A DNA stretch of 13,828 nt. Source: a virus (Duplodnaviria > Heunggongvirae > Uroviricota > Caudoviricetes > Autographiviridae). The translations under genes and the position numbers were made by a program. A model generated the notes under the pieces. It ran no database searches, was not told the origin of the DNA, and was given only the letters and a program-made list of their open reading frames with translations. Position 1 is the first letter of the stretch; every line of letters begins with the position of its first letter. Location: IMG/VR virus record IMGVR_UViG_2660238008_000004; one strand, given 5' to 3'. Below are positions 2,331 to 13,826 of this stretch, piece by piece.

Positions 2331-4175
2331 ATGCCAACAAACCTACGCCGCCTGCTTGCGCAGGCTGCCGACGCTGACCCGCTCAATACTGCGGACGCAG
2401 ATGTACAGCAAATGATCGCTGACGGGGTTGTTATTCGACGTTCCAAGATATGCCCCGTAAAGCGTAAGCCCGTTAAGGCGGCATACAACACAAAGACCGA
2501 AGAGTTTTATTACAATGCAGATGGCTCCGCGATGACCTTGCGGGAGTGGCGAACGCTGCACGGTGTTCAACCGAAGAAACAAAAACAGCGCTCTGACGCT
2601 GGGTTGCGGCAAGTCATCCAGCCCGGCGACGCGATTCACTGCCGACGCGCTGAGATTGAGCAATGGCTAAATAAAAAGCCTGCTCGTTATGTTGAACCAC
2701 TGCCGCCAGATTTCCCCGGCGTTCGCGTAGACGATGCCGCATTGAAACCGCGCGAGCACGCCGTGCCGGAATCAACAACCGGACAGAATGCTTTTCTCAA
2801 AGCCTGCCGCGAGTTTCTCATTTGCGATGAGAAGACCATGCGCCGAATTAACAGGGGCATGGGTAAACTGGAAGCGATGCGTAACGCAGATTTCAAACGC
2901 TACGGAGACTCAGGGGAGTTTCGTCAATTTTGGTGTGGAGAGTCGAAGCCTACCGAAGATAGATTTAATAATACAAATCATCATTGTGACCCGAACGGCT
3001 TGGCTGCTTCGCCGTCTGTGCCGCCACTGAATACTACGCCGTATGAGTTCCGCCCCCTGGCTCGCTGTGACCGAAACGCACGCGTTAGCCTGCTGCCACC
3101 TGATGGGCTGGAGTGGAGGCCGGGGCAATTGTCTGTTGCTGATGCGATCTTTTCCCGTGGCAGTGATGTGCTTGCCGTTCTGCCTACTGGGTATGGCAAA
3201 AGCGCTGCCTTCACTTACCCATTGATTTATGAATCCCGCGCTGGCGTTGGCCTGTCTGTTATCGTTGTTCCTACTAATACCCTTAAGCGTCAGATTCTCC
3301 GCCAGTTGCGGGAGGCTGGCGTTCACGCTGTGGCATTTGGTGACAAGCTGCCGAGGCACCGCAATGCGCAACAACTGGCGGGGCTGGCTGCCGGGGCGTT
3401 CCGGGTTGCAGTCGTTTCGCCTGAACATCTGGTTCCGTCGAGTCAGGTTCTCGCGGCGCTGATGGCTTATGGCGTTGATCGTTTTATTATCGATGAGGCA
3501 CACACGGTCAAAGACTGGGATTTCCGCCCAGCTTACGACGCAATGCAGCACACACTACAGAATGCCTTTCCTTCGGCTCAACGCTGCGTGTTTACGGCTA
3601 CGCTGCTACGCGAAAATGAGCGCAGTTTAATGGAGTCGCTTGGCTGCCGTGGCGATTACGTAACATTCCGCGCTGATGTTGCTCGCGAGAATATCCAGTT
3701 GACGCCAGTCAGACAGTGCCGCGAACGTTTCCGAGCGGCTATTGGTCTGGTCGAGGCTCTGCCGAAAGAAGAGAAGACGCTTATTCTCGTCAATGACCTT
3801 AAAACGTTGCGGGCGTACCTGAAACTCTTGGGCGACCGGGCGCGGCCATATCACTCGAAGACGATGCACCTGAGCAACGAGGAACGCCACGCAAACGCTG
3901 AGTGGTTTGCCTCTACGCCGGGCGCGATTCTTATTGCTACTAAAGCCTTCGGGCTGGGTGCTGATGTTCCTGATATCCGTAACGTTGTCGTGACATACGT
4001 CCCCGATGATTTGCCTGATCTCGTTCAGATGATTGGACGAGCCGGGCGCGATGGGGAACCTGCCCGCGCTTTTCTGCTGTGGTCATCGCTGGCGCTGGAT
4101 GTTGCGCCTGATGAGCTTGCTTACTTCTACCGCCCTGAAAACTGCAACTGGCAGTACATCGCTAAATACCTCTGA
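2331..4175 (+). CDS. RecQ-family (SF2) DNA helicase core with an unrecognised ~270-aa N-terminal extension; lacks RQC/HRDC C-terminal domains; 614 aa
   Basis: Walker A LPTGYGKS preceded by a motif-0-like segment (RPGQLSVADAIF); motif Ia IVVPTNTLKRQ; motif II with the RecQ signature IIDEAHTVKDWDFRPAY; motif III FTATL; motif VI MIGRAGRDG about 40 aa from the C-terminus. GGAG ribosome-binding site 8 nt upstream of ATG 2331. Confidence 0.85.
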   Translation: MPTNLRRLLAQAADADPLNTADADVQQMIADGVVIRRSKICPVKRKPVKAAYNTKTEEFYYNADGSAMTLREWRTLHGVQPKKQKQRSDAGLRQVIQPGDAIHCRRAEIEQWLNKKPARYVEPLPPDFPGVRVDDAALKPREHAVPESTTGQNAFLKACREFLICDEKTMRRINRGMGKLEAMRNADFKRYGDSGEFRQFWCGESKPTEDRFNNTNHHCDPNGLAASPSVPPLNTTPYEFRPLARCDRNARVSLLPPDGLEWRPGQLSVADAIFSRGSDVLAVLPTGYGKSAAFTYPLIYESRAGVGLSVIVVPTNTLKRQILRQLREAGVHAVAFGDKLPRHRNAQQLAGLAAGAFRVAVVSPEHLVPSSQVLAALMAYGVDRFIIDEAHTVKDWDFRPAYDAMQHTLQNAFPSAQRCVFTATLLRENERSLMESLGCRGDYVTFRADVARENIQLTPVRQCRERFRAAIGLVEALPKEEKTLILVNDLKTLRAYLKLLGDRARPYHSKTMHLSNEERHANAEWFASTPGAILIATKAFGLGADVPDIRNVVVTYVPDDLPDLVQMIGRAGRDGEPARAFLLWSSLALDVAPDELAYFYRPENCNWQYIAKYL

Positions 4176-4212: not shown

Positions 4213-4650
4213 ATGCCTGTTACCGAACATGCGCAGCGTCGTGCTGCGCGTGCGGATGCGCTCATCACCGCACAACTAGCTTTCGCCCTGAATGGGTACA
4301 ACTGGGATGAACTGGCCGAACCTCATCGCAAGACCCTTAATCGTGAGGCCATCATTCGCGAGGTATTTACACCGCTGGAGCGATATTGCCTGCTGAATGA
4401 TTGCGAGCCGTGGGAGTGTCTGGCCGCTGTACTGAACCGCATGAAAAGGCCGGATGGCTCGCGTCGCTGGAAAGCCGTCCGGTTGTCCGACCGGGTTTTC
4501 AATGGCCGGGTGCATCCGGTACGCAAGACTCCTGATGAAGTTTACGCCGCCATTGCCCGCCGTTTGTTTCTGCCGAAGCCCGTGCATCAAGAAGTGATTC
4601 AGCACATCCGTGCGCTAGGCCTGTTACCAGTTGGAGATAACCACCAATGA
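4213..4650 (+). CDS. Hypothetical protein, 145 aa
   Basis: ORF with GGAG ribosome-binding site 8 nt upstream; co-directional with the helicase and 37 bp downstream of it; no recognisable motif. Confidence 0.6.
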   Translation: MPVTEHAQRRAARADALITAQLAFALNGYNWDELAEPHRKTLNREAIIREVFTPLERYCLLNDCEPWECLAAVLNRMKRPDGSRRWKAVRLSDRVFNGRVHPVRKTPDEVYAAIARRLFLPKPVHQEVIQHIRALGLLPVGDNHQ

Positions 4651-4856
4651 CGAAATCTGAATTTGAAGCCGGAGCATGGGAACTAAAAACCCTGCTGCTG
4701 GGTGCGTTGACGCGCAGGCTTAAGGAGGACGAGGCGGGAGAGTCACGCATGGCTGCTGCCGAGTTGTCATCCTGCGTGAACTTCCTCAAGCAGAACGCCG
4801 CCGACTCGCCTGATACAACCTTTAACAACGTGTTCCCGGAGGATGACGACCAATGA
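4647..4856 (+). CDS. Hypothetical small protein, 69 aa
   Basis: Start ATG overlaps the upstream stop (ATGA at 4647-4650), indicating translational coupling; GGAG 11 nt upstream. Confidence 0.5.
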   Translation: MTKSEFEAGAWELKTLLLGALTRRLKEDEAGESRMAAAELSSCVNFLKQNAADSPDTTFNNVFPEDDDQ

Positions 4857-5029
4857 CCCCTGAACAGTTCCGGCAATGGTTCGCCACGCTGCCGGAGAAA
4901 TATCAACGTGTAGTCCGCTTCATGTACGACAACGCCCGCAAGTCGGGCACACACACCGCGTCAAGCCTTGCGCTGATTCACACGTTGGTTACTGACCAGA
5001 TCAAATTTGATTCGGAGTTTAATTTATGA
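4853..5029 (+). CDS. Hypothetical small protein, 58 aa (below the ORF-track cutoff; MTPEQFRQWFATLPEKYQRVVRF...)
   Basis: Hand translation from ATG 4853, which overlaps the upstream stop (ATGA); GGAGG 11 nt upstream; its stop TGA 5027-5029 overlaps the next start ATG 5026. It fills an otherwise unexplained gap in a tightly packed operon. Confidence 0.45.
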   Translation: MTPEQFRQWFATLPEKYQRVVRFMYDNARKSGTHTASSLALIHTLVTDQIKFDSEFNL

Positions 5030-5589
5030 CTTTGAGTATTACCGATATCCAGCGCATTAACGCGCTGGCTCATAAGCACCTAAAGAACAATGAAGAGATT
5101 GCAGCGGAGACAGGTCATACCCTGACCGATATTGATGCAGTAATCCGTGGCGCCTATGTCGATGACTTGGCCGAACATTGGAAAGACGATGCTGATATTA
5201 ATCTGGCGGAGTACAACGCCATCCGCAGCCGCTATAAGCCCGGCAAGCTGCACCGCGATACAGAGTTTATGATTGCCCGCGATATGCTGATTCGCCCTGA
5301 GACGGTGCTGGCTATCGCCCATTCCCGCTTTAGCAACGCCCACACGCACCCGGTACAGAAACCCTTGAAGGTGAAGCCAGCGAAGCCGAAAGTAGTGCGC
5401 AAGTTAGTGCCTACTGATTTAGATGAAATCCACAAGTTAGAGCGCTTCGGTTGGCCTGCTGCGGAGATCGCCGGGAAGCTGGGCGTCCCTGTTGAGGTCG
5501 TCGCGCATGTGCAACGCTGCCTGAGAAATCGTTGGTCGTACCCGGATACTCTGGAGTCTGTTAACTCCAAATTCAGCGAGGCTGAATGA
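5026..5589 (+). CDS. Hypothetical protein, 187 aa, possible C-terminal HTH
   Basis: ORF translationally coupled to its upstream neighbour; C-terminal segment WPAAEIAGKLGVPVEVVAHVQRCL looks HTH-like (weak). Confidence 0.6.
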   Translation: MTLSITDIQRINALAHKHLKNNEEIAAETGHTLTDIDAVIRGAYVDDLAEHWKDDADINLAEYNAIRSRYKPGKLHRDTEFMIARDMLIRPETVLAIAHSRFSNAHTHPVQKPLKVKPAKPKVVRKLVPTDLDEIHKLERFGWPAAEIAGKLGVPVEVVAHVQRCLRNRWSYPDTLESVNSKFSEAE

Positions 5590-5822
5590 TGGCAGAGAAC
5601 GAACCGCTGCACCCCGCCGTTAACCCTGATCTCTACGTGAACCTTGACGAACAACGCGAAGGATACGCTCCGATTGAATCACGGGGTTGGGATGTGCTGA
5701 CGCAGAACCTGACCGGGAAAGGTCGAACTGACCCCAGCCAAACACTTAACCAGAATCCGAAACAACGCCCGCGCGGCTCCGTTGGTGAGCGTCGTTGGCT
5801 TCGTAAACGTGGATTACTTTAA
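5586..5822 (+). CDS. Hypothetical small protein, 78 aa
   Basis: ATGA start/stop overlap with the upstream gene; basic C-terminus. Confidence 0.5.
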   Translation: MMAENEPLHPAVNPDLYVNLDEQREGYAPIESRGWDVLTQNLTGKGRTDPSQTLNQNPKQRPRGSVGERRWLRKRGLL

Positions 5823-5834
5823 CGAGGAATTACC

Positions 5835-6074
5835 ATGAGCAAAACTATCGTATTGCTGCCGCCCCGCAAGAATACAGACTGGGCTGCACAATTAAAGCTG
5901 ATTTCTGAATCGCTTGAGGTGAGTCAGGCAGACCTCGCCCACGCCTATCAGGTTGATCGTCGGGATATGGGTAAAGCGTATCACGGTGTGCGCAAACTGC
6001 CGGAACGTTGTGTGCCTGTTCATATGCTGTTGTTAGCGCAGGTACACGACTTTAGAGCATTATCAGGAGAGTAA
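5835..6074 (+). CDS. Hypothetical small protein, 79 aa
   Basis: ORF with GAGG ribosome-binding site upstream of ATG 5835; no recognisable motif. Confidence 0.5.
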   Translation: MSKTIVLLPPRKNTDWAAQLKLISESLEVSQADLAHAYQVDRRDMGKAYHGVRKLPERCVPVHMLLLAQVHDFRALSGE

Positions 6075-6077
6075 TTT

Positions 6078-6758
6078 ATGTCTGACCAGAATGTTAATCC
6101 GTACCTTTCCGGTGCTGATGCTGCATCGCAGCAATCGCCATACATGGCTGCACCTGTTGGAGTTGACAATGGAGCATCCCGCTTTAGCTCTGCGCCTGCT
6201 GATGCTGATTTCCTCCGTACCCAACCCGTTAACGGCAATGATGGCGGACAATGGAATAATGGCAATATCGCAAATCAGCAAGACCAGAACGCTGACAGCG
6301 CTGGGGCGCAAGTGGGCGACACACTGCAATTACAGGATGGCACCACTGTTGAGTTGACTCCTGAACTTCATGGGCTGATGGGGCAGTTTCACCAGTCTGT
6401 CGAAAGCCAGCTAGGTCAGGGTACAGTTGACGCGATGTTGCAGTACGCTGGCACGCTCGACGCCGGGACGCAATCAACCCTTGAACGGATGGTCATGTCT
6501 GGCGATCCCGCGCAGATGTCGCGTGCGGTTCAGTATCTGCAAGAGCGTATGGCTGGCGGTTCCATTACCGGTTACGTCCCGAACGGCCAGACTGCCGCGC
6601 AACCTGTCGGAATGTCACATGCTGAGTTTATAGCAGCGTATGACCAGCTTTCGCAGTGGGCGCAGCAATCAGGGTATGGCCCCGGCCATCGCCAGTACGA
6701 TGAACAATACCGCGCTCTGGTTGCGCAGCGCTCCGCTGGCAAACGTGCTGGTCGCTAA
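6078..6758 (+). CDS. Hypothetical protein, 226 aa, with low-complexity Q/N/G/A/S/D-rich N-terminal ~100 aa and a predicted helical C-terminal half
   Basis: AGGAG ribosome-binding site upstream of ATG 6078; the compositional bias is visible in the translation. Possible scaffold or other virion-associated protein given the capsid-like gene downstream (speculative). Confidence 0.6.
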   Translation: MSDQNVNPYLSGADAASQQSPYMAAPVGVDNGASRFSSAPADADFLRTQPVNGNDGGQWNNGNIANQQDQNADSAGAQVGDTLQLQDGTTVELTPELHGLMGQFHQSVESQLGQGTVDAMLQYAGTLDAGTQSTLERMVMSGDPAQMSRAVQYLQERMAGGSITGYVPNGQTAAQPVGMSHAEFIAAYDQLSQWAQQSGYGPGHRQYDEQYRALVAQRSAGKRAGR

Positions 6759-7509: not shown

Positions 7510-8505
7510 ATGGCTGATACTTCGTACAGTCCCGATCTGTTTCGCCCACATTATGGCGGGGTGGAATCCGACAATGATATTCACATCGAGGCTTATGACC
7601 GGGATGTCCAGACCCGTTTAGAGTCCAAATCCGTATTTCTGGCCGAGGGGCTGTCTACATACAGGCCGCTGAAAGGCAGCAACCAATACCGCATTGATCG
7701 CCTGAGTGGTGATCTTGAGGTGAAGGGCAGAACCGCAGGGCAATCGCTGGAGCCTACCGCCGTTAAGTCGGACAAGTTGGTTATCTCTGTGGATACGCTG
7801 AGTTATATCCGCGTCCCGATTGACTATCAGGACGATTGGACAGCACCCACATTTCGCGCAGAGCTGAGCCGCAATATCGGCACTGCGCACGCTAAGTTCT
7901 ACGACGAAGCGCACACCATCCAGTTAATCAAAGCGACTGACTTTGTACCGCCGCCGACACTGCAACCAACGTTTAACCCGCTTACGAATAACGTTGTCTC
8001 GCTCGACCTGACAGCGGGGAGCGAAGAGGACGCCGCAAACGAATTGGTTCACGCCGTCAAAGCGGCTGCTAATCGCTTCCTCACTGAGAAAGATATTCCG
8101 GTGGCCGAGCTGGTGCTTCTCATTGACCCTGCATGGTTCAGCATCCTGATGGAACATAAGAAGCTGATGAACGTCCGTTACAGCCGGGATAGTGGCAACG
8201 ATTACGCATGGCGTCGCGTTGGCTATGTCGCTGGGGTGCGAGTCATTGAGCTGAACAGTTACCCGCAGGAAGTCATTACCGGGCATGAACTGGGCGCTGA
8301 TTATGACGTTACCGCAGAGGAAGCGATGACGAGGGCGACGCTGTTTAAACCTTCCTCTGTGCTGCTGACGGTCGAAGCGCAGAGCGTCATCAATCGCCAG
8401 TGGGATGATGAACGCGAAATGACAATGGTGATGGACTCATATCGCCTGTTCAACGTTGGGCTGCGTCGTCCTGACTGCGTTATCAATTTCCGACAAGCTG
8501 CATAA
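7510..8505 (+). CDS. Hypothetical protein, 332 aa; possible HK97-fold major capsid protein (weak resemblance to T7 gp10-type capsid proteins)
   Basis: Strong AGGAG ribosome-binding site 8 nt upstream of ATG 7510 (preferred over the track start 7465, which has none). By-eye similarity to recalled T7 gp10 segments (KLVISVDTLSYIRVPIDYQDD versus KVITIDGLLTADVLIYDIEDA; LIDPAWFSIL versus CDPDSYSAIL; C-terminal GLRRPDCVINF versus GGLRPEAAGAVVF). The product call is tentative. Confidence 0.4.
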   Translation: MADTSYSPDLFRPHYGGVESDNDIHIEAYDRDVQTRLESKSVFLAEGLSTYRPLKGSNQYRIDRLSGDLEVKGRTAGQSLEPTAVKSDKLVISVDTLSYIRVPIDYQDDWTAPTFRAELSRNIGTAHAKFYDEAHTIQLIKATDFVPPPTLQPTFNPLTNNVVSLDLTAGSEEDAANELVHAVKAAANRFLTEKDIPVAELVLLIDPAWFSILMEHKKLMNVRYSRDSGNDYAWRRVGYVAGVRVIELNSYPQEVITGHELGADYDVTAEEAMTRATLFKPSSVLLTVEAQSVINRQWDDEREMTMVMDSYRLFNVGLRRPDCVINFRQAA

Positions 8506-8521: not shown

Positions 8522-9031
8522 ATGGTTAATGATGCTTACGCCCCTGAGCTGCTGTGTTCCCTTTTCCTGTATGACCCGGTGACAGGCCGCCTGCACCATA
8601 AAGCTAACCGACGCCGGGTTAAGGCTGGCTCCTATGCTGACTCCACCCGGCGAGCTGATGGCTATCGTCAAGTTGCCCTGCGACTTGATGGCAAGCAGTA
8701 CCAGCTAAAAGCCCATCGCGTGGCGTGGATTCTTGCGCATGGCGCTATTCCTCATGGTAAGCAGATCGATCACATCAACGGTATCCGTGACGACAATCGC
8801 CTATGCAATCTGCGCTTGGTTACGCAGCGGGAAAACGACCAGAACCGACGCAAGGCAAGGGGGTATAGCTGGAATAAGGGCTGTAGAAAATGGGAGGCTT
8901 ACATACGCGTTGATGGTGTACTCCGTCACCTTGGCTTATTTACTACCGAAGTGGCGGCGCGTGCTGCCTATCTAAAAGCTAAAGCCAGATGCCATCCCTC
9001 AACGCCAGCCGATTTATTGCAGGCTGCCTAA
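8522..9031 (+). CDS. HNH endonuclease (HNH_3-type) with C-terminal AP2-like DNA-binding domain, 169 aa
   Basis: Motif HRVAWILAHGAIPHGKQIDHINGIRDDNRLCNLRLVTQRENDQN (H-N-H with conserved asparagines) followed by KWEAYIRVDGVLRHLGLFTTEVAARAAY (AP2-like); GGAGG ribosome-binding site upstream of ATG 8522. Confidence 0.85.
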   Translation: MVNDAYAPELLCSLFLYDPVTGRLHHKANRRRVKAGSYADSTRRADGYRQVALRLDGKQYQLKAHRVAWILAHGAIPHGKQIDHINGIRDDNRLCNLRLVTQRENDQNRRKARGYSWNKGCRKWEAYIRVDGVLRHLGLFTTEVAARAAYLKAKARCHPSTPADLLQAA

Positions 9032-9475: not shown

Positions 9476-9758
9476 ATTAAGGTGGCGGTACATCGAGCCG
9501 CCGCCAATGACTGGCACACTTGCTTACCTGAAACAGTGGGTAATAGATACCGGAGAGCCTGAGCTTGAAGCTGAGTTTCGTAAGCTGCTGGGGCTAATGC
9601 GCCGCAATGGTATCAGTGACGAACGCGTTAATGCGTTGGCCGATGAGCTTTATGCTTTGGTACGCCAGCGCCAGTGCGAAGAATATGAAGCCTGCAAGCG
9701 GGCTTCATCTGACAATGGAGACTTTGAATCATGGTTACACGGACAGACCAGCTATTAA
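9459..9758 (+). CDS. Hypothetical protein, about 99 aa
   Basis: Start chosen at ATG 9459 (GAGAGGA upstream; overlaps the preceding gene by 17 nt) rather than the track start 9411; start position is uncertain. Confidence 0.4.
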   Translation: MITTIKLRWRYIEPPPMTGTLAYLKQWVIDTGEPELEAEFRKLLGLMRRNGISDERVNALADELYALVRQRQCEEYEACKRASSDNGDFESWLHGQTSY

Positions 9759-10159
9759 GAAAAGCTATGCGGGGCTATCTGGAACACCTTGGCAATATGC
9801 CACTGGCGGAACGGATTACAAACGCTGCTGCATTCGAAGATGTTTATCGCTTCCTGTTGAATGGTTCCGGGCGGCTGGAGTTGCGCCGCGCTGATGTGGC
9901 CGCTGTCCGTGTCTTCCTGTGGAATTATCAATACCGACGCTGTGCGGTGACAGGTAAGCCGCTGCGCCTTGCGTCTGCCGTGCTGGATCACTGCCACCGA
10001 ACCGGGCGCGTGCGTGCTGTGGTGCATCGCTCTGCTAATGCTGCTGAGGGTGGCTATTATGTAGGGCGGGTGTGTGGACTCTCACCCGGTAGCATGAATT
10101 TCATGCTACCAGCCTACCGCCGCCACTACAAGGGGCTGGGTATTATTTATCCAGCATAA
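9731..10159 (+). CDS. Endonuclease VII-like protein, 142 aa
   Basis: Segment CAVTGKPL...LDHCHRTGRVRAVVHRSANAAEG parallels the T4 endonuclease VII core (C-x2-C ... DHDH ... VRGLLCNLCNAAEG) recalled from memory, with several zinc-ligand cysteines replaced by His/Ser. Start 9731 overlaps the upstream gene by 28 nt. Confidence 0.55.
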   Translation: MVTRTDQLLRKAMRGYLEHLGNMPLAERITNAAAFEDVYRFLLNGSGRLELRRADVAAVRVFLWNYQYRRCAVTGKPLRLASAVLDHCHRTGRVRAVVHRSANAAEGGYYVGRVCGLSPGSMNFMLPAYRRHYKGLGIIYPA

Positions 10160-10275: not shown

Positions 10276-10336
10276 CCACTTAAAATAACTGCCTACAATG
10301 TGTGCAGGCCAATCACCGAAAAACAGGAGGTACAAT

Positions 10337-10492
10337 ATGACAAAGGCGAAAATCAGCCCCGTATCGACTGGTATGAGTAGGGATGCTCTGAATGCTCTTA
10401 TCAAGACAACGCGTACTGTAGCGCGTAAAAGTTCCAGAGAAACTGATGAGCGTTTAGCTGAATACAGTAAAGTACATGCCGCTTGCAATTGA
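10337..10492 (+). CDS. Small basic protein, 51 aa; candidate antitoxin/partner of the downstream toxin-like gene
   Basis: Strong AGGAGG ribosome-binding site 6 nt upstream of ATG 10337; overlaps the downstream ORF by 17 nt; does not resemble YafN/Phd-type antitoxins as I recall them. Confidence 0.5.
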   Translation: MTKAKISPVSTGMSRDALNALIKTTRTVARKSSRETDERLAEYSKVHAACN

Positions 10493-10949
10493 GTTTGATT
10501 GCTGTGAAAAACTCGCCAATGATGGCGAGTTTCTTCCTTTTTATCAGGAGTTCTGTCGCTATAAGCAACTAAGTGCAGAGCATTCCCGCCCCCGATATTC
10601 CATCCAAAAACTTTTTGCATCTATTTCGCTGCTCTTTGGCAGAGATAGGGACAATGTTGATGAAGATAAGCCGTATCATCAGAAAAGAGAAGGTTTAACA
10701 CATCTACATGTGAGGCAGGAAGACAGTGTCTGGGAGGATGACAATGGGCATCCACTGGTACAATGGAAATGTAAAAGTAACAGCTATTTGATATATTCGT
10801 ATTTTGTATTCTCAGGTACAAGGCACTACTATATTGTTGATTTTATTGATCATGATGCCCATGCAAATTGGGACAATCAAGAAGCAATACAAATGTGGAT
10901 AGATGAAGCTAAACAATATCGAGAACGTATAACAGAAGCGGCTGCATAG
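10476..10949 (+). CDS. YafO-like toxin candidate (type II toxin family), 157 aa
   Basis: By-eye similarity to E. coli YafO recalled from memory: EFCRYKQ versus DFISYKR, LFGRDRDNVDED versus IFGRDALYDDSF, HLHV versus HIHL, and C-terminal HDAHANWDNQEAIQMWIDEA versus EPHKLARDNNQMHKIGKMAE. Poor own ribosome-binding site, consistent with coupling to the upstream small ORF. Confidence 0.45.
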   Translation: MPLAIEFDCCEKLANDGEFLPFYQEFCRYKQLSAEHSRPRYSIQKLFASISLLFGRDRDNVDEDKPYHQKREGLTHLHVRQEDSVWEDDNGHPLVQWKCKSNSYLIYSYFVFSGTRHYYIVDFIDHDAHANWDNQEAIQMWIDEAKQYRERITEAAA

Positions 10950-10984: not shown

Positions 10985-12193
10985 TCATTTAATTAATTCA
11001 TAATCTATTAATTCAATATACCGGCGCATCTCTAAAGGGGATGCTGCGTTTTTTGAATATGTCTTAAAACTCTCAGTGCTACCTCGTTCGTGGCCTACAA
11101 GCAGAGCGATCCTATCTTCTGGCACTTGAGCACGGTCGAGTTGTTGCACAAACGCATGGCGGAGTGAGTGAAACACTTTTCTCTCTGCGGCAAGTTCGCC
11201 AAGAGCTTTACGCTTTGCCCGTGTGAACTGCTGCGTATGCCACGTTGAGCGCTTCCCATCCGCCCGGTCTGTAATTGACGCGTGATTGAACAGAAAACCG
11301 CTATGTGTGGTTTTGAGCAATGATTTCACGAGGGGGATTAGCTTGCTGTGTACTGGGACGATTCGTGCCGCGCTCTTGGTCTTCCCCTCGGTGATCTCAA
11401 AGCACAAAACGCCCTCGATGGTTTTAATACTGCTCTCACGCAGCGTACATATTTCATTGATCCGCATACCGCTGTAAGCACCAATAGCCGTTACCGCCTT
11501 CATCTCGTCATCAAGCAAGGTATAGACCTTTGCCAGCTCTCCCGGTGCGAAGACTTCATAGCTGACCTTGCTGCTTTTTGCTTCGAGTGCATGACCACGC
11601 CAAGGGTTATCCTGTGGCGCATCGTGATAGCGATTGCGTGCCAAATCCCATATCTGCGCCAGTGCACTGATATAGTTCTGGATGGTTTGGGGCGCTCGCT
11701 CAGTTTTGAGTTTATCTAACCAGCCTGTAACTATGGTTCGGTTAATATCTCGCAACTGAACATCTTTCTTTTTCAGGTGGGTTAACAGCACCTCTACGGC
11801 TTTATTGGTCTTGGATAGCGTGGTTAGCTTTCGCTTCTCGCTGTATTGAAGCAGGTACAAATCACGCATTTTTAGCAAGGAAGGGCAAGCCTGAATCGAT
11901 GCACCAAACGATGCGGGGGCTTCCTTGGCGTACACACTGACACGGCGTAGCTCATCAATGATTTGGTCTACAGATGAGCCGCCTTGTGGCTTTAGCAGAT
12001 TCCGTAAGCGAGTCCATTCCAGAGCAATAGCATCGCGAAACAATCGCGCTTGCCGTATGTCTCGTGTCCCTGTGCTTTTCATAAAGTAGCGTTTCCCTTG
12101 GAACAGGTGACGCATATAGCTGGGGATAGCTATCCGCACGAGGTAATTCCCGCAGGGATCTAAAACTAGATAACGATCTCTCTTGAAACTCAT
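10985..12193 (-). CDS. Tyrosine recombinase / phage-type integrase, 402 aa
   Basis: Catalytic residues in conserved context: GMRINEI (Arg), HSLRHAF (His-x-x-Arg), LVGHERGSTESFKTYSK (His and Tyr nucleophile); N-terminal arm-binding-like region (GKRYFMKSTGTRD). Its 5' end lies 134 bp from the tRNA fragment. Confidence 0.9.
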   Translation of the reverse strand: MSFKRDRYLVLDPCGNYLVRIAIPSYMRHLFQGKRYFMKSTGTRDIRQARLFRDAIALEWTRLRNLLKPQGGSSVDQIIDELRRVSVYAKEAPASFGASIQACPSLLKMRDLYLLQYSEKRKLTTLSKTNKAVEVLLTHLKKKDVQLRDINRTIVTGWLDKLKTERAPQTIQNYISALAQIWDLARNRYHDAPQDNPWRGHALEAKSSKVSYEVFAPGELAKVYTLLDDEMKAVTAIGAYSGMRINEICTLRESSIKTIEGVLCFEITEGKTKSAARIVPVHSKLIPLVKSLLKTTHSGFLFNHASITDRADGKRSTWHTQQFTRAKRKALGELAAERKVFHSLRHAFVQQLDRAQVPEDRIALLVGHERGSTESFKTYSKNAASPLEMRRYIELIDYELIK

Positions 12194-12326: not shown

Positions 12327-12357
12327 CGTGCCGGTTCGAGTCCGGCCTTCGGCACCA
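12327..12357 (+). other. 3'-terminal fragment of a tRNA-Leu gene (T-arm, 3' acceptor strand, CCA), not a complete tRNA; candidate att core / direct repeat
   Basis: CGTGCCGGTTCGAGTCCGGCCTTCGGCACCA: T-stem GCCGG/CCGGC around loop TTCGAGT, then CTTCGGC-A-CCA. Matches the 3' end of E. coli tRNA-Leu(CAA) leuX as recalled. No D-arm or anticodon arm upstream; upstream sequence diverges at 12326. Confidence 0.75.
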
Positions 12358-12370
12358 AAAGTATGTAAAT

Positions 12371-12557: not shown

Positions 12558-13826
12558 ATGGCCCTAACGGATACTAAAGTTCGCTCTGCGAAACCTGAGG
12601 AGAAAGAGTATTCACTTGTTGACGGCGACGGCATGTCCTTACTTGTAAAACCTGGCGGTTCAAAGTATTGGCGATTTCGTTTCCGTTTTGGCGGTAAACA
12701 ACATTTGATGGCGTTCGGCGTTTACCCGGATGTTTCACTGGCGGATGCGCGGAAGAAAAGGGAAGAGGCCAGAAAGCTGGTAGCTGCTGGTATCGATCCT
12801 CGTGAGCATAAGCGTGCTGTGAAAGAAGAGCAGGCGAAAGAGATTATTACTTTCGAGAAGGTTGCCAGAGAGTGGCTCGTAACCAACCAAAAATGGTCGG
12901 AAGATCATGCTAATCGTGTAAAAAAGAGCCTGAAGGACAATATCTTCCCGGCAATTGGTGCTCGCAATATTGCTGAACTGGGCACCCGCGATCTGTTAAT
13001 TCCTATTAAAGCCGTGGAGAAATCCGGACGTCTTGAAGTGGCTTCCCGCCTTCAACAGCGCACCACGGCCATCATGCGTTATGCAGTGCAAAGCGGGTTA
13101 ATTGATTACAATCCGGCGCAAGAGATGGCGGGGGCGGTTGCTTCCAGTAATCGACAGCATCGTCCGGCGCTGGAGTTAAAGCGTATCCCGGAATTACTCC
13201 AGAAAATCGATGAATACACCGGCAGGCCACTAACCCGCTGGGCAACCGAACTTACTCTGCTTATTTTTATTCGATCCAGTGAGCTGCGTTTTGCTCGCTG
13301 GTCAGAAATCGATTTTGAAACGTCAATGTGGACCATCCCGCCTGAGCGAGAACCTATTCCCGGTGTGAAACATTCTCAGCGAGGTTCAAAGATGCGCACA
13401 CCTCATCTGGTGCCGCTTTCAAAGCAGGCGCTAGCGATCCTGAAGCAGATAAAACAGTTCTGTGGCGAACATGAACTGATTTTTATTGGCGATCACGATC
13501 CACGTAAGCCCATGAGCGAGAACACGGTAAACAGTGCGCTACGGGTGATGGGTTATGACACTAAGGTTGAAGTTTGCGGCCACGGCTTCCGCACAATGGC
13601 CTGTAGTTCGTTAATTGAGTCAGGACTATGGTCGAAGGATGCGGTGGAAAGGCAGATGAGCCATATGGAACGCAATTCGGTGAGGGCGGCGTATATCCAT
13701 AAAGCGGAACATCTGGATGAGCGTAAACTGATGTTGCAGTGGTGGGCTGATTTTCTGGATGCGAACAGAGAGAAGAGTATCAGTCCGTTTGAATATGCAA
13801 AGGTTAACAATCCGCTGAGAAGGTGA
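12558..13826 (+). CDS. P4-family tyrosine integrase, 422 aa; stop codon at 13824-13826, two bases before the window end
   Basis: N-terminus MALTDTKVRSAKPEEKEYSLVDGDGMSLLVKPGGSKYWRFRFRFGGKQ is the characteristic P4-type integrase arm-binding domain; C-terminal catalytic region (HGFRTMACS, RQMSHMERNSVRAAY). Start chosen at ATG 12558 with AAGGAAG ribosome-binding site rather than track start 12480. Orientation matches the tRNA fragment, as in tRNA-then-int islands. Confidence 0.9.
   Translation: MALTDTKVRSAKPEEKEYSLVDGDGMSLLVKPGGSKYWRFRFRFGGKQHLMAFGVYPDVSLADARKKREEARKLVAAGIDPREHKRAVKEEQAKEIITFEKVAREWLVTNQKWSEDHANRVKKSLKDNIFPAIGARNIAELGTRDLLIPIKAVEKSGRLEVASRLQQRTTAIMRYAVQSGLIDYNPAQEMAGAVASSNRQHRPALELKRIPELLQKIDEYTGRPLTRWATELTLLIFIRSSELRFARWSEIDFETSMWTIPPEREPIPGVKHSQRGSKMRTPHLVPLSKQALAILKQIKQFCGEHELIFIGDHDPRKPMSENTVNSALRVMGYDTKVEVCGHGFRTMACSSLIESGLWSKDAVERQMSHMERNSVRAAYIHKAEHLDERKLMLQWWADFLDANREKSISPFEYAKVNNPLRR

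Follow-up and report, generated by a model that had tools for sequence, protein, structure and literature searches.

A RecQ-type helicase with an orphan N-terminal region marks a candidate satellite of lytic Bonnellvirus phages in Escherichia coli

We analysed a 13,828-nt stretch of DNA (hereafter the window; IMG/VR record IMGVR_UViG_2660238008_000004, classified in the Autographiviridae) and focused on the helicase gene that it carries at positions 2331-4175 on the + strand. The window is E. coli chromosomal DNA, 100% identical to strain EC09, and the helicase gene belongs to an island of 14,625 bp located between direct repeats of the 3' end of the tRNA-Leu gene leuX. The sequence of this element is best explained as having the anatomy of a satellite of lytic Bonnellvirus (T7-like) phages, probably representing an undescribed satellite family marked by the helicase. 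The best explanation of the gene product is an active RecQ-type superfamily 2 (SF2) 3'-5' DNA helicase, predicted to have lost the Zn-binding, RQC and HRDC domains and to have gained a lineage-specific N-terminal region of 260 amino acids (aa). We predict that it acts as the motor of replication, or of recombination-dependent replication, of the element, the best explanation of its role and one to which we give about half of our confidence. Taken jointly, the helicase may thus sign the first recognised satellites of T7-like coliphages, which would be induced by the RNA polymerase of the helper, carry a copy of its terminal or packaging region, make capsids from a capsid protein of their own and replicate with a RecQ-type motor bearing an orphan targeting domain; this combined reading is possible, though as a whole it falls somewhat short of probable.

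The helicase gene encodes a protein of 614 aa, and an identical coding sequence is annotated in RefSeq as 'DEAD/DEAH box helicase' (WP_023277342.1). Its ATG is preceded by GGAG, 10 nt upstream. The original prediction, made from the letters of the window, had proposed a RecQ-like core with the full motif set, and this part of it held up in Pfam, PDB sequence and fold searches. Pfam profiles matched DEAD at aa 264-428 (E = 1e-21) and Helicase_C at aa 478-575 (E = 5e-14), and the motif assignments did not fail in the profile search. The closest PDB sequences were RecQ catalytic cores (4tmu, E = 9e-32; 1oyw, E = 5e-30), as were the closest folds to the AlphaFold2 (AF2) model of the protein (6crm and 1oyw, Foldseek E of ~1e-10). 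The core occupies aa 261-585 (3111-4085, + strand) and contains the motif set of a RecQ SF2 core between motifs 0 and VI (0, I, Ia, II of the DExH type, III, V and VI). We located WRPGQ at residue 262, GYGKS at 287, DEAH at 388, WDFRP at 396, TAT at 422, ATKAFGLG at 536 and QMIGRAGR at 566, and the motifs are invariant in 61 family members. The aromatic-rich loop reads DEAH-TVKD-W-DFRP-A-Y (W396 to Y402), its W, F and R being invariant in the family. It is 2 residues shorter than the loop of E. coli RecQ, as the 'GH' between W and DFRP is missing. The diagnostic segment announced from the sequence, DEAH-x-x-x-W-x-x-DFRP-x-Y, is therefore present, but the W-x-x-DFRP spacing given for it is that of cellular RecQ; in this helicase the W abuts DFRP.

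Beyond the core, the protein differs sharply from RecQ. It ends 39 aa past motif VI, and we obtained no Pfam match in the helicase to the Zn-binding (PF16124), RQC (PF09382) or HRDC (PF00570) domains, in agreement with the predicted stop about 40 aa after motif VI and the predicted absence of RQC and HRDC. There is no Cys cluster after motif VI, C605 being the sole Cys in that segment. These domains are replaced by an acidic C-terminal tail with predicted helices (aa 586-614; 4086-4175, + strand). Among family members, the Pfam domains are limited to PF00270, PF00271 and PF04851; true RecQ proteins retrieved by the same search have PF16124 in addition. Furthermore, the helicase scored below the curated RecQ cutoffs of TIGR00614 (143.4 vs 219.8 bits) and TIGR01389 (154.3 vs 640.2 bits). 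The helicase is a RecQ-like core that falls outside RecQ on three domains and on the curated cutoff. Like bacterial RecQ (E. coli 1oyw; Cronobacter 4tmu and 6crm), it has two RecA-like lobes, motifs 0-VI and an aromatic-rich loop, with ~27-34% identity over aa 261-585. Unlike bacterial RecQ, it lacks the Zn-binding domain, the RQC winged helix and HRDC, carries the 2-residue deletion in the loop, bears a 260-aa N-terminal extension without relatives and is encoded by a mobile element.

The N-terminal region (aa 1-260; 2331-3110, + strand) comprises a basic module (aa 25-95), a conserved stretch that escaped modelling (aa 96-166) and, at aa 167-202, a helical hairpin. It had been described as having no recognisable motif, and neither domain searches nor structure prediction gave a known domain. 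No match was found for aa 1-260 in Pfam (even at E <= 10, with 11 members), PHROGs, NCBIfam, PADLOC or PDB sequences, and fold searches with the N-terminal model returned no match. When a profile of this region was run against 1.84 billion representative proteins, only its own family was retrieved, as two full-length clusters of the helicase family and short fragments. Yet 36 N-terminal positions are invariant in 61 sequences, including QPGD at 97-100 and G151-x-NA. AF2 was run on the N-terminus alone (11 sequences) and on the full-length protein (61 sequences), giving predicted local distance difference test (pLDDT) scores of 52.5 and 63.5, respectively. Both runs agree that the model is usable only over aa 25-80 and over the hairpin at aa 167-202. 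The small module reached a pLDDT of 74-88 over aa 30-80 in both runs and is predicted to contain strands at 34-40 and 47-53, short strands at ~58-67 and a helix at 70-76. The basic sub-module at aa 25-95 (2403-2615, + strand; predicted strand-strand-strand-helix) is a candidate nucleic-acid-binding part of the protein: it has an isoelectric point of 10.2 and 15 Lys/Arg in 71 residues, a charge compatible with nucleic-acid binding. It behaves as an exchangeable unit, with identity classes of 59% versus 91-98%. By sequence pattern and topology, we also considered whether aa 25-115 might be excisionase-like or AP2/Int-arm-like, a reading that we do not claim.

The non-coding DNA upstream of the helicase gene links the element to a specific group of phages. 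A serine recombinase gene is followed by 1.26 kb of non-coding DNA and then by the helicase gene. Positions 1068-2330 were searched by blastn against 50,697 phage records, and matches were found in 15 records only, all of the Bonnellvirus group, with 87-98% identity over positions 1765-1994. This phage-homologous block (+ strand) includes an array of YACTGYC repeats (1771-1849), a 28-nt motif (1939-1966) and an AT-rich stretch. Over its core (1828-1994), the identity to non-coding DNA of Bonnellvirus rises to 98-99%, and positions 1825-1994 differ from phage LF82-23 by one mismatch in ~170 nt; the similarity is looser leftward and ends abruptly at 1994. The phage counterpart is a gene-free gap of ~1.5 kb that runs from the last gene (endolysin) to the first early gene (SAMase), in which the block sits upstream of three sigma-70-type early promoters. 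This end-to-start gap is a G/T-rich array of short repeats and, in a genome of the T7 type, would have to contain the physical ends, the terminal repeat and the packaging signals; the Bonnellvirus records that we examined start at arbitrary points. The block at 1765-1994 probably copies terminal, packaging or origin signals of the helper. The 28-nt motif, GATACTATATCACTATAGACACTTTCAT, also occurs in the phage terminal region and recurs inverted directly after the RNA polymerase gene of LF82-23 (L018 25618-25644), and in the linear GenBank entry for phage glasur the cut falls exactly within this motif. On the reverse strand, it shares the first half of a 21-nt promoter-like motif.

This 21-nt motif constitutes a further link. 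Bonnellvirus phages are ~42-kb Autographiviridae encoding their own RNA polymerase. LF82-23 and Lidtsur each have 3 copies per genome, with 2-4 mismatches, always in coding-strand orientation and at corresponding sites: intergenic before the primase block, after the RNA polymerase gene, and within the internal-virion-protein gene, where the site is out of frame. Using a weight matrix built from six phage sites alone, for which the best of 200 shuffles reached 19.4 bits, we found two copies in the interval 142-200 nt ahead of the helicase ATG. The first, AATGAAGGTATCTACTAAGGA (2131-2151, + strand), scored 29.5 bits, as high as the best of the phage sites; the second (2189-2209, + strand) scored 21.4 bits, above all 200 shuffles. 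Sister elements also have related copies ahead of the helicase gene. Number, strand and placement fit a candidate promoter of the phage single-subunit RNA polymerase, in a genus in which no mapped promoter is known to us. Weaker copies of the motif were also seen at ~2003-2025 and ~2236-2260.

A third link is the capsid gene. The product of 7510-8505 (+ strand) is a homologue of major capsid proteins (phrog_267, E = 7e-71), with 56% identity to those of Bonnellvirus phages Lidtsur, J8-65, glasur, LF82-23, Kc261 and others. A protein at 56% identity beside a cis block at 98-99% is what one would predict for an element that has to keep in step with the signals of its helper. The capsid homologue is the sole clear virion gene of the element: scans with Pfam and PHROGs detected no portal, protease, large terminase, tail or lysis genes. 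The element also encodes a tyrosine integrase (10985-12193, - strand; PF00589, DUF6538) and is flanked by attachment repeats, the right one being a copy of the leuX 3' end at 12327-12358 (+ strand), in which an exact 31-mer was located, and the left one lying 14,625 bp upstream, outside the window. It thus combines an integrase and attachment repeats with the lack of most virion and lysis genes, and is tied to a specific helper by the ~170-nt block, the capsid protein and the 21-nt motif. The ratio of element to phage size is 0.345 (14.6 kb/42.4 kb). The ratios of P4 to P2 and of SaPI1 to 80alpha are close to this value, and small T=4 capsids are made in both cases, which suggests small capsids here as well.

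The homology of the upstream block to phage DNA bears directly on how the helicase could act. The original prediction had placed an iteron-bearing block directly upstream of the gene and considered that the protein might be a replication initiator that binds it. The repeat cluster is real, with 5 copies of YACTGYC on one strand within 79 nt (1771-1849) and 13 copies in the whole window against 5.9 expected. However, it lies ~480-560 nt upstream of the helicase ATG rather than adjoining it, and the array and its AT-rich stretch, being homologous to phage non-coding DNA, are helper-type cis DNA and not private iterons of the element. A classical initiator-helicase, whose N-terminus would bind the YACTGYC iterons and open the adjoining AT-rich DNA, would account for a repeat cluster beside an AT-rich stretch upstream of the gene and for the basic character of the N-terminal module. 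We consider it highly improbable, as the array is phage-derived and SF2 RecQ-type helicases are not known to melt origins as initiators. Furthermore, four sister elements (L005, L008, L010 and L012) are without the array, having 0-2 scattered matches, and still have helicase aa 1-95 at 91-97% identity, so that the array does not co-vary with the N-terminal module. The comparison of sister elements and phages revealed no private iteron set for the helicase, nor element-specific iterons that co-vary with an initiator DNA-binding domain. Binding of the protein to an iteron array of its own is thus contradicted, and the helicase is probably not a classical iteron-binding initiator. A role in replication of the element, suggested at the same time, is still the most plausible one, although not in the form of an iteron-binding initiator.

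The prediction of a replication motor is based in part on the absence of any other recognisable replication gene in the element: no primase, polymerase or other known replication protein was detected with Pfam, PHROGs and NCBIfam profiles. The helicase gene also leads a tightly packed array of co-oriented genes extending from 2331 to ~10159, as anticipated when it was described as the first gene of a long operon. In the cycle that we propose, the operon would stay quiet until infection by the helper, whose RNA polymerase would then transcribe it from the two upstream phage-type promoter copies. The integrase would excise the element at the leuX repeats, which are observed in the sequence. The helicase would unwind or remodel the satellite DNA, its basic N-terminal module possibly targeting it to this DNA or to a replisome partner, and the helper or host replisome would copy the DNA into concatemers. 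The packaging machinery of the helper (terminase) would then recognise the helper-derived terminal block and cut there, and the satellite DNA would enter capsids containing the capsid protein of the satellite.

Several points weigh against this reading. Excision, replication, packaging and helicase activity are predictions from sequence, and the 21-nt motif is a candidate promoter. The sole copy of the element in IMG/VR is integrated beside tRNA-Leu, and a ~14.7-kb Logan contig ends inside the attachment repeat. We considered contigs of ~14.7 kb as possible circles and rejected this interpretation, since their ends fall in the attachment repeat and an assembly break explains them equally well. 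Within the protein, aa 81-166 have a pLDDT below 50 despite the highest sequence conservation; given this poorly modelled segment and the lack of a homologue, any role of the N-terminal region is a guess. To our knowledge, known satellites replicate with hexameric helicases of the SF3, AAA+ or DnaB-like type rather than with monomer-type SF2 relatives of RecQ, and we know of no satellite that uses an SF2 RecQ-type helicase. T7-type replisomes can copy origin-bearing plasmids without extra helicases, so a dedicated helicase is not obviously needed. Finally, one of several neighbouring open reading frames (ORFs) without assigned function could be the real initiator.

A different role in the same satellite would be that of a concatemer-maturation or branch-migration enzyme, acting before packaging with the endonuclease VII-like resolvase of the element (9731-10159, + strand; PF02945, phrog_423), and perhaps with its HNH endonuclease (HNH_3; 8522-9031, + strand; PF13392, E = 9e-19; phrog_99), to clear branches and recombination intermediates from the replicated satellite DNA, without starting or driving replication. 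Both nuclease genes lie within the co-oriented array of the helicase, the substrates of RecQ-family enzymes include forks, D-loops and Holliday junctions, and T7-type replication yields branched concatemers that need a resolvase. In PHROGs, the helicase also showed weak similarity to phrog_6819, annotated as 'Holliday junction branch migration helicase' (E = 4e-6). Nevertheless, the helicase is the first gene of the array and lies 5.5 kb from the endonuclease VII-like gene rather than adjoining it, the helper phages have an endonuclease VII of their own, and we saw no co-variation or fusion between the two genes. We regard this role as unlikely, though deserving of consideration, and retain the replication motor as the preferred explanation.

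The helicase could also be an effector of interference with the helper, which strips proteins from helper DNA, unwinds its origin R-loops or blocks its concatemers, thereby favouring the element and protecting bacteria. Other satellites have dedicated effectors against helper replication; the satellite PLE is reported to carry such effectors against replication of its helper ICP1 (PMC9410903, 10.1101/639039). As the lead gene under putative helper promoters, the helicase would be expressed early, and its orphan N-terminus could bind a helper protein. However, hhalign comparison of the N-terminal profile with all 54 proteins of phage LF82-23 gave probabilities of ~1%, with a resemblance to 0 of the 54, and we have no evidence of toxicity for the helicase. 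In addition, no other non-structural gene of the family is as conserved, and such conservation suits a core function for the element itself better than an arms race. This explanation appears rather doubtful to us.

Defence pipelines raise another alternative, in which the helicase would act on its own in defence or as a toxin, in the manner of DpdF or PsyrT, and would be cargo of an island that is a defence island and not a satellite. PADLOC matched the helicase to 'DpdF' sub-models and, over the core, to PsyrT (135.7 bits), and leuX is a known island hot spot, with a neighbouring second island that carries BREX remnants. The match to the sub-model PDLC02858 reached 916 bits over aa 112-614 (2664-4175) and covered the full 504 model positions. 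Some helicase relatives have a Met at residue 111, and PDLC02858 was presumably built from this same helicase family with a shorter annotated start. Since it matches the family end to end, defence pipelines may mislabel such elements as Dpd components. By contrast, the curated DpdF model NF041063 gave 127.2 bits against a cutoff of 550 and aligned to the core only, and no dpd genes (dpdA-K) were found in the 34-kb annotated neighbourhood or in PADLOC scans of the neighbours. DpdF, the helicase of the Dpd 7-deazaguanine DNA-modification system, likewise has a RecQ-related SF2 core, but the helicase studied here measures 614 aa against 813 model positions and has another N-terminus and no dpd neighbours. 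By these sequence measures, the helicase is not DpdF.

Similarly, PsyrT, the RecQ-family toxin of PsyrTA, has a RecQ-like core without the full C-terminus and is associated with mobile elements. Unlike PsyrT, only the core of the helicase aligns (profile positions 21-345 of 689), the operon is satellite-like and no PsyrA-type partner is present; neither a full-length PsyrT match nor an adjacent PsyrA was found, the downstream ORF having no PADLOC match, and no antitoxin partner was recognisable. Judged by coverage and partner, the helicase is not the PsyrT toxin. The gene also lies in the conserved core of the element, outside its variable cargo slot, and a defence island would leave the capsid homologue, the phage cis-DNA and the phage-type motifs in need of another explanation. 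The original suggestion of a defence or anti-defence effector found no contextual support, the DpdF label reflecting homology only with no dpd genes nearby, and we judge cargo helicase and defence island together to be improbable.

We then compared the element with known satellites, on the reading that the helicase is its replication motor. Like SaPI/PICI Pri-Rep, P4 alpha and PLE RepA, the helicase is a lead or early gene, the sole replication-type protein and presumably helper-induced; those proteins, however, are SF3/AAA+ hexamers or initiators binding their own iterons, whereas the helicase is of the SF2 RecQ type. Like cf-PICIs and P4-like satellites, the element is integrative, about one third the size of its helper, and carries capsid-related gene(s), an HNH gene and a cargo slot. 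Unlike them, its capsid module consists of a capsid protein and a weak small-terminase-like fragment, and its candidate helpers are lytic Autographiviridae, whereas the helpers of cf-PICIs and P4-like satellites are temperate. Homologues of connector, alpA, sid, psu, delta and alpha were not detected in the element by Pfam and PHROGs scans, and the cf-PICI combination of an own capsid module with alpA and a primase/replicase is absent. At the level of sequence, the element has the features of a phage satellite but fits no described satellite family. The nearest experimental parallel concerns plasmids: in classical experiments, plasmids with a T7 origin and a concatemer junction were replicated and packaged by T7. 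By analogy, a circle with phage-promoter-type and terminal cis sequences could be replicated into concatemers and packaged by a phage of the T7 type, although the element, unlike these plasmids, is natural, integrative and gene-carrying, and the role of the shared block would be deduced from its position.

Known enterobacterial satellites (P4-like, PICI and cf-PICI) exploit temperate phages. Searches of 7.7 million PMC papers and 0.34 million preprints, a coverage that excludes most subscription journals, turned up no account of a satellite that exploits Bonnellvirus, Autographiviridae or T7-like coliphages. The same literature described no RecQ-type helicases in satellites, an absence that is no proof. 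If our interpretation is correct, satellite biology would extend to lytic T7-like coliphages, a major therapeutic and model phage group, and the element would illustrate, in nature, how the RNA polymerase of a phage can induce a satellite. A RecQ-type SF2 helicase, with its 260-aa region without relatives, would have been recruited as the core DNA-metabolism enzyme of a satellite. Carriage by ~1% of complete E. coli genomes could also affect phage therapy with Bonnellvirus-type phages.

At a 90% identity threshold, the helicase family falls into ~70 clusters, whose members come exclusively from Enterobacteriaceae (Escherichia, Enterobacter, Citrobacter, Cronobacter and Kosakonia), with a divergent branch at 42-46% identity. 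The gene was present in 60 of 5,426 complete E. coli genomes (~1%), invariably as a single copy; the locus of one carrier, strain NCTC11023, is 99.2% identical. When one genome per species was searched, only 8 loci emerged from 185,579 species (Kosakonia, Kluyvera, Enterobacter and Trabulsiella). The order of the element (resolvase, non-coding block, helicase, small ORFs, capsid and integrase) is shared by Escherichia, Enterobacter, Kosakonia, Kluyvera and Trabulsiella, and the 44%-identical branch keeps this gene order at a different chromosomal site. We also used the capsid protein to look for sister satellites with another replication module; the 13-15-kb contigs retrieved in this way proved to be phage fragments and were discarded.

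The left part of the non-coding region contains a conserved leader of ~440 nt (1194-1632, + strand), located downstream of a sigma-70-like promoter (1148-1194, with the promoter-like site itself at 1148-1177). It is 83-98% identical in 7 sister elements, and its first 136 nt are kept even in L009 and L011. The first hairpin of the leader shows two compensatory pair changes. Rfam returned no match on the whole window, and the RNA fold of the leader gave a non-significant z of -0.87. This leader may act as a regulatory RNA or a res site, or may represent the true origin of the element. L009 and L011, which have the N-terminal class at 59% identity, differ from the other elements in the mid-leader (~1330-1560). 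With two classes only and physically linked regions, this correlation between N-terminus and leader is a lead and not evidence; the L009-type upstream block had no match in the phage collection. An ORF of 150 aa at 1504-1956 was rejected as a gene, since it overlies phage-homologous non-coding DNA, is unannotated in RefSeq and has a low-complexity translation. It is sometimes called, as in Logan contig L002 and in phage Kc261 (hypothetical protein), and consists of pyrimidine-rich repeat DNA, so that these calls are probably spurious.

The serine recombinase (resolvase/invertase; 492-1067, + strand; PF00239, E = 2e-36) keeps its position in L002 and L003. Downstream of the helicase, seven small co-oriented ORFs (4213-6758, + strand), listed as coding sequences in RefSeq and mostly without relatives, occur in the same order in L002 and L003. 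One of them (69 aa; 4647-4856, + strand) weakly resembles the N-terminal part of the small terminase subunit of the phages, with 42-47% identity over 45 aa by tblastn (E of 1e-3 to 6e-3) and a Pfam match to DNA_Packaging_2 (E = 0.0026). A 137-aa ORF with a helix-turn-helix lies between the small ORFs and the capsid gene. The HNH gene directly follows the capsid gene and may encode a homing-type nuclease aimed at the helper; two small ORFs separate it from the endonuclease VII-like gene. A homologue of YafO-family toxins (10476-10949) is encoded just inside the integrase end of the element, with no antitoxin annotated and a 64-aa ORF upstream (10298-10492).

The cargo slot between the attachment site and the resolvase varies among elements and resembles the defence hot spots of other satellites. 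Here it lies to the left of the window (L001 12337-14140) and contains three uncharacterised ORFs, one with a sub-threshold HepT-like match, whereas that of sister element L002 (576-2431) encodes a cytosine methylase and an Eco29kI-type restriction enzyme. A second island is present in tandem at leuX (window 12558-13826; L001 26659-30317). It contains a P4-type integrase gene (Arm-DNA-bind_3), after which come DUF1819 and DUF1788 genes of the BREX type that are truncated by IS1.

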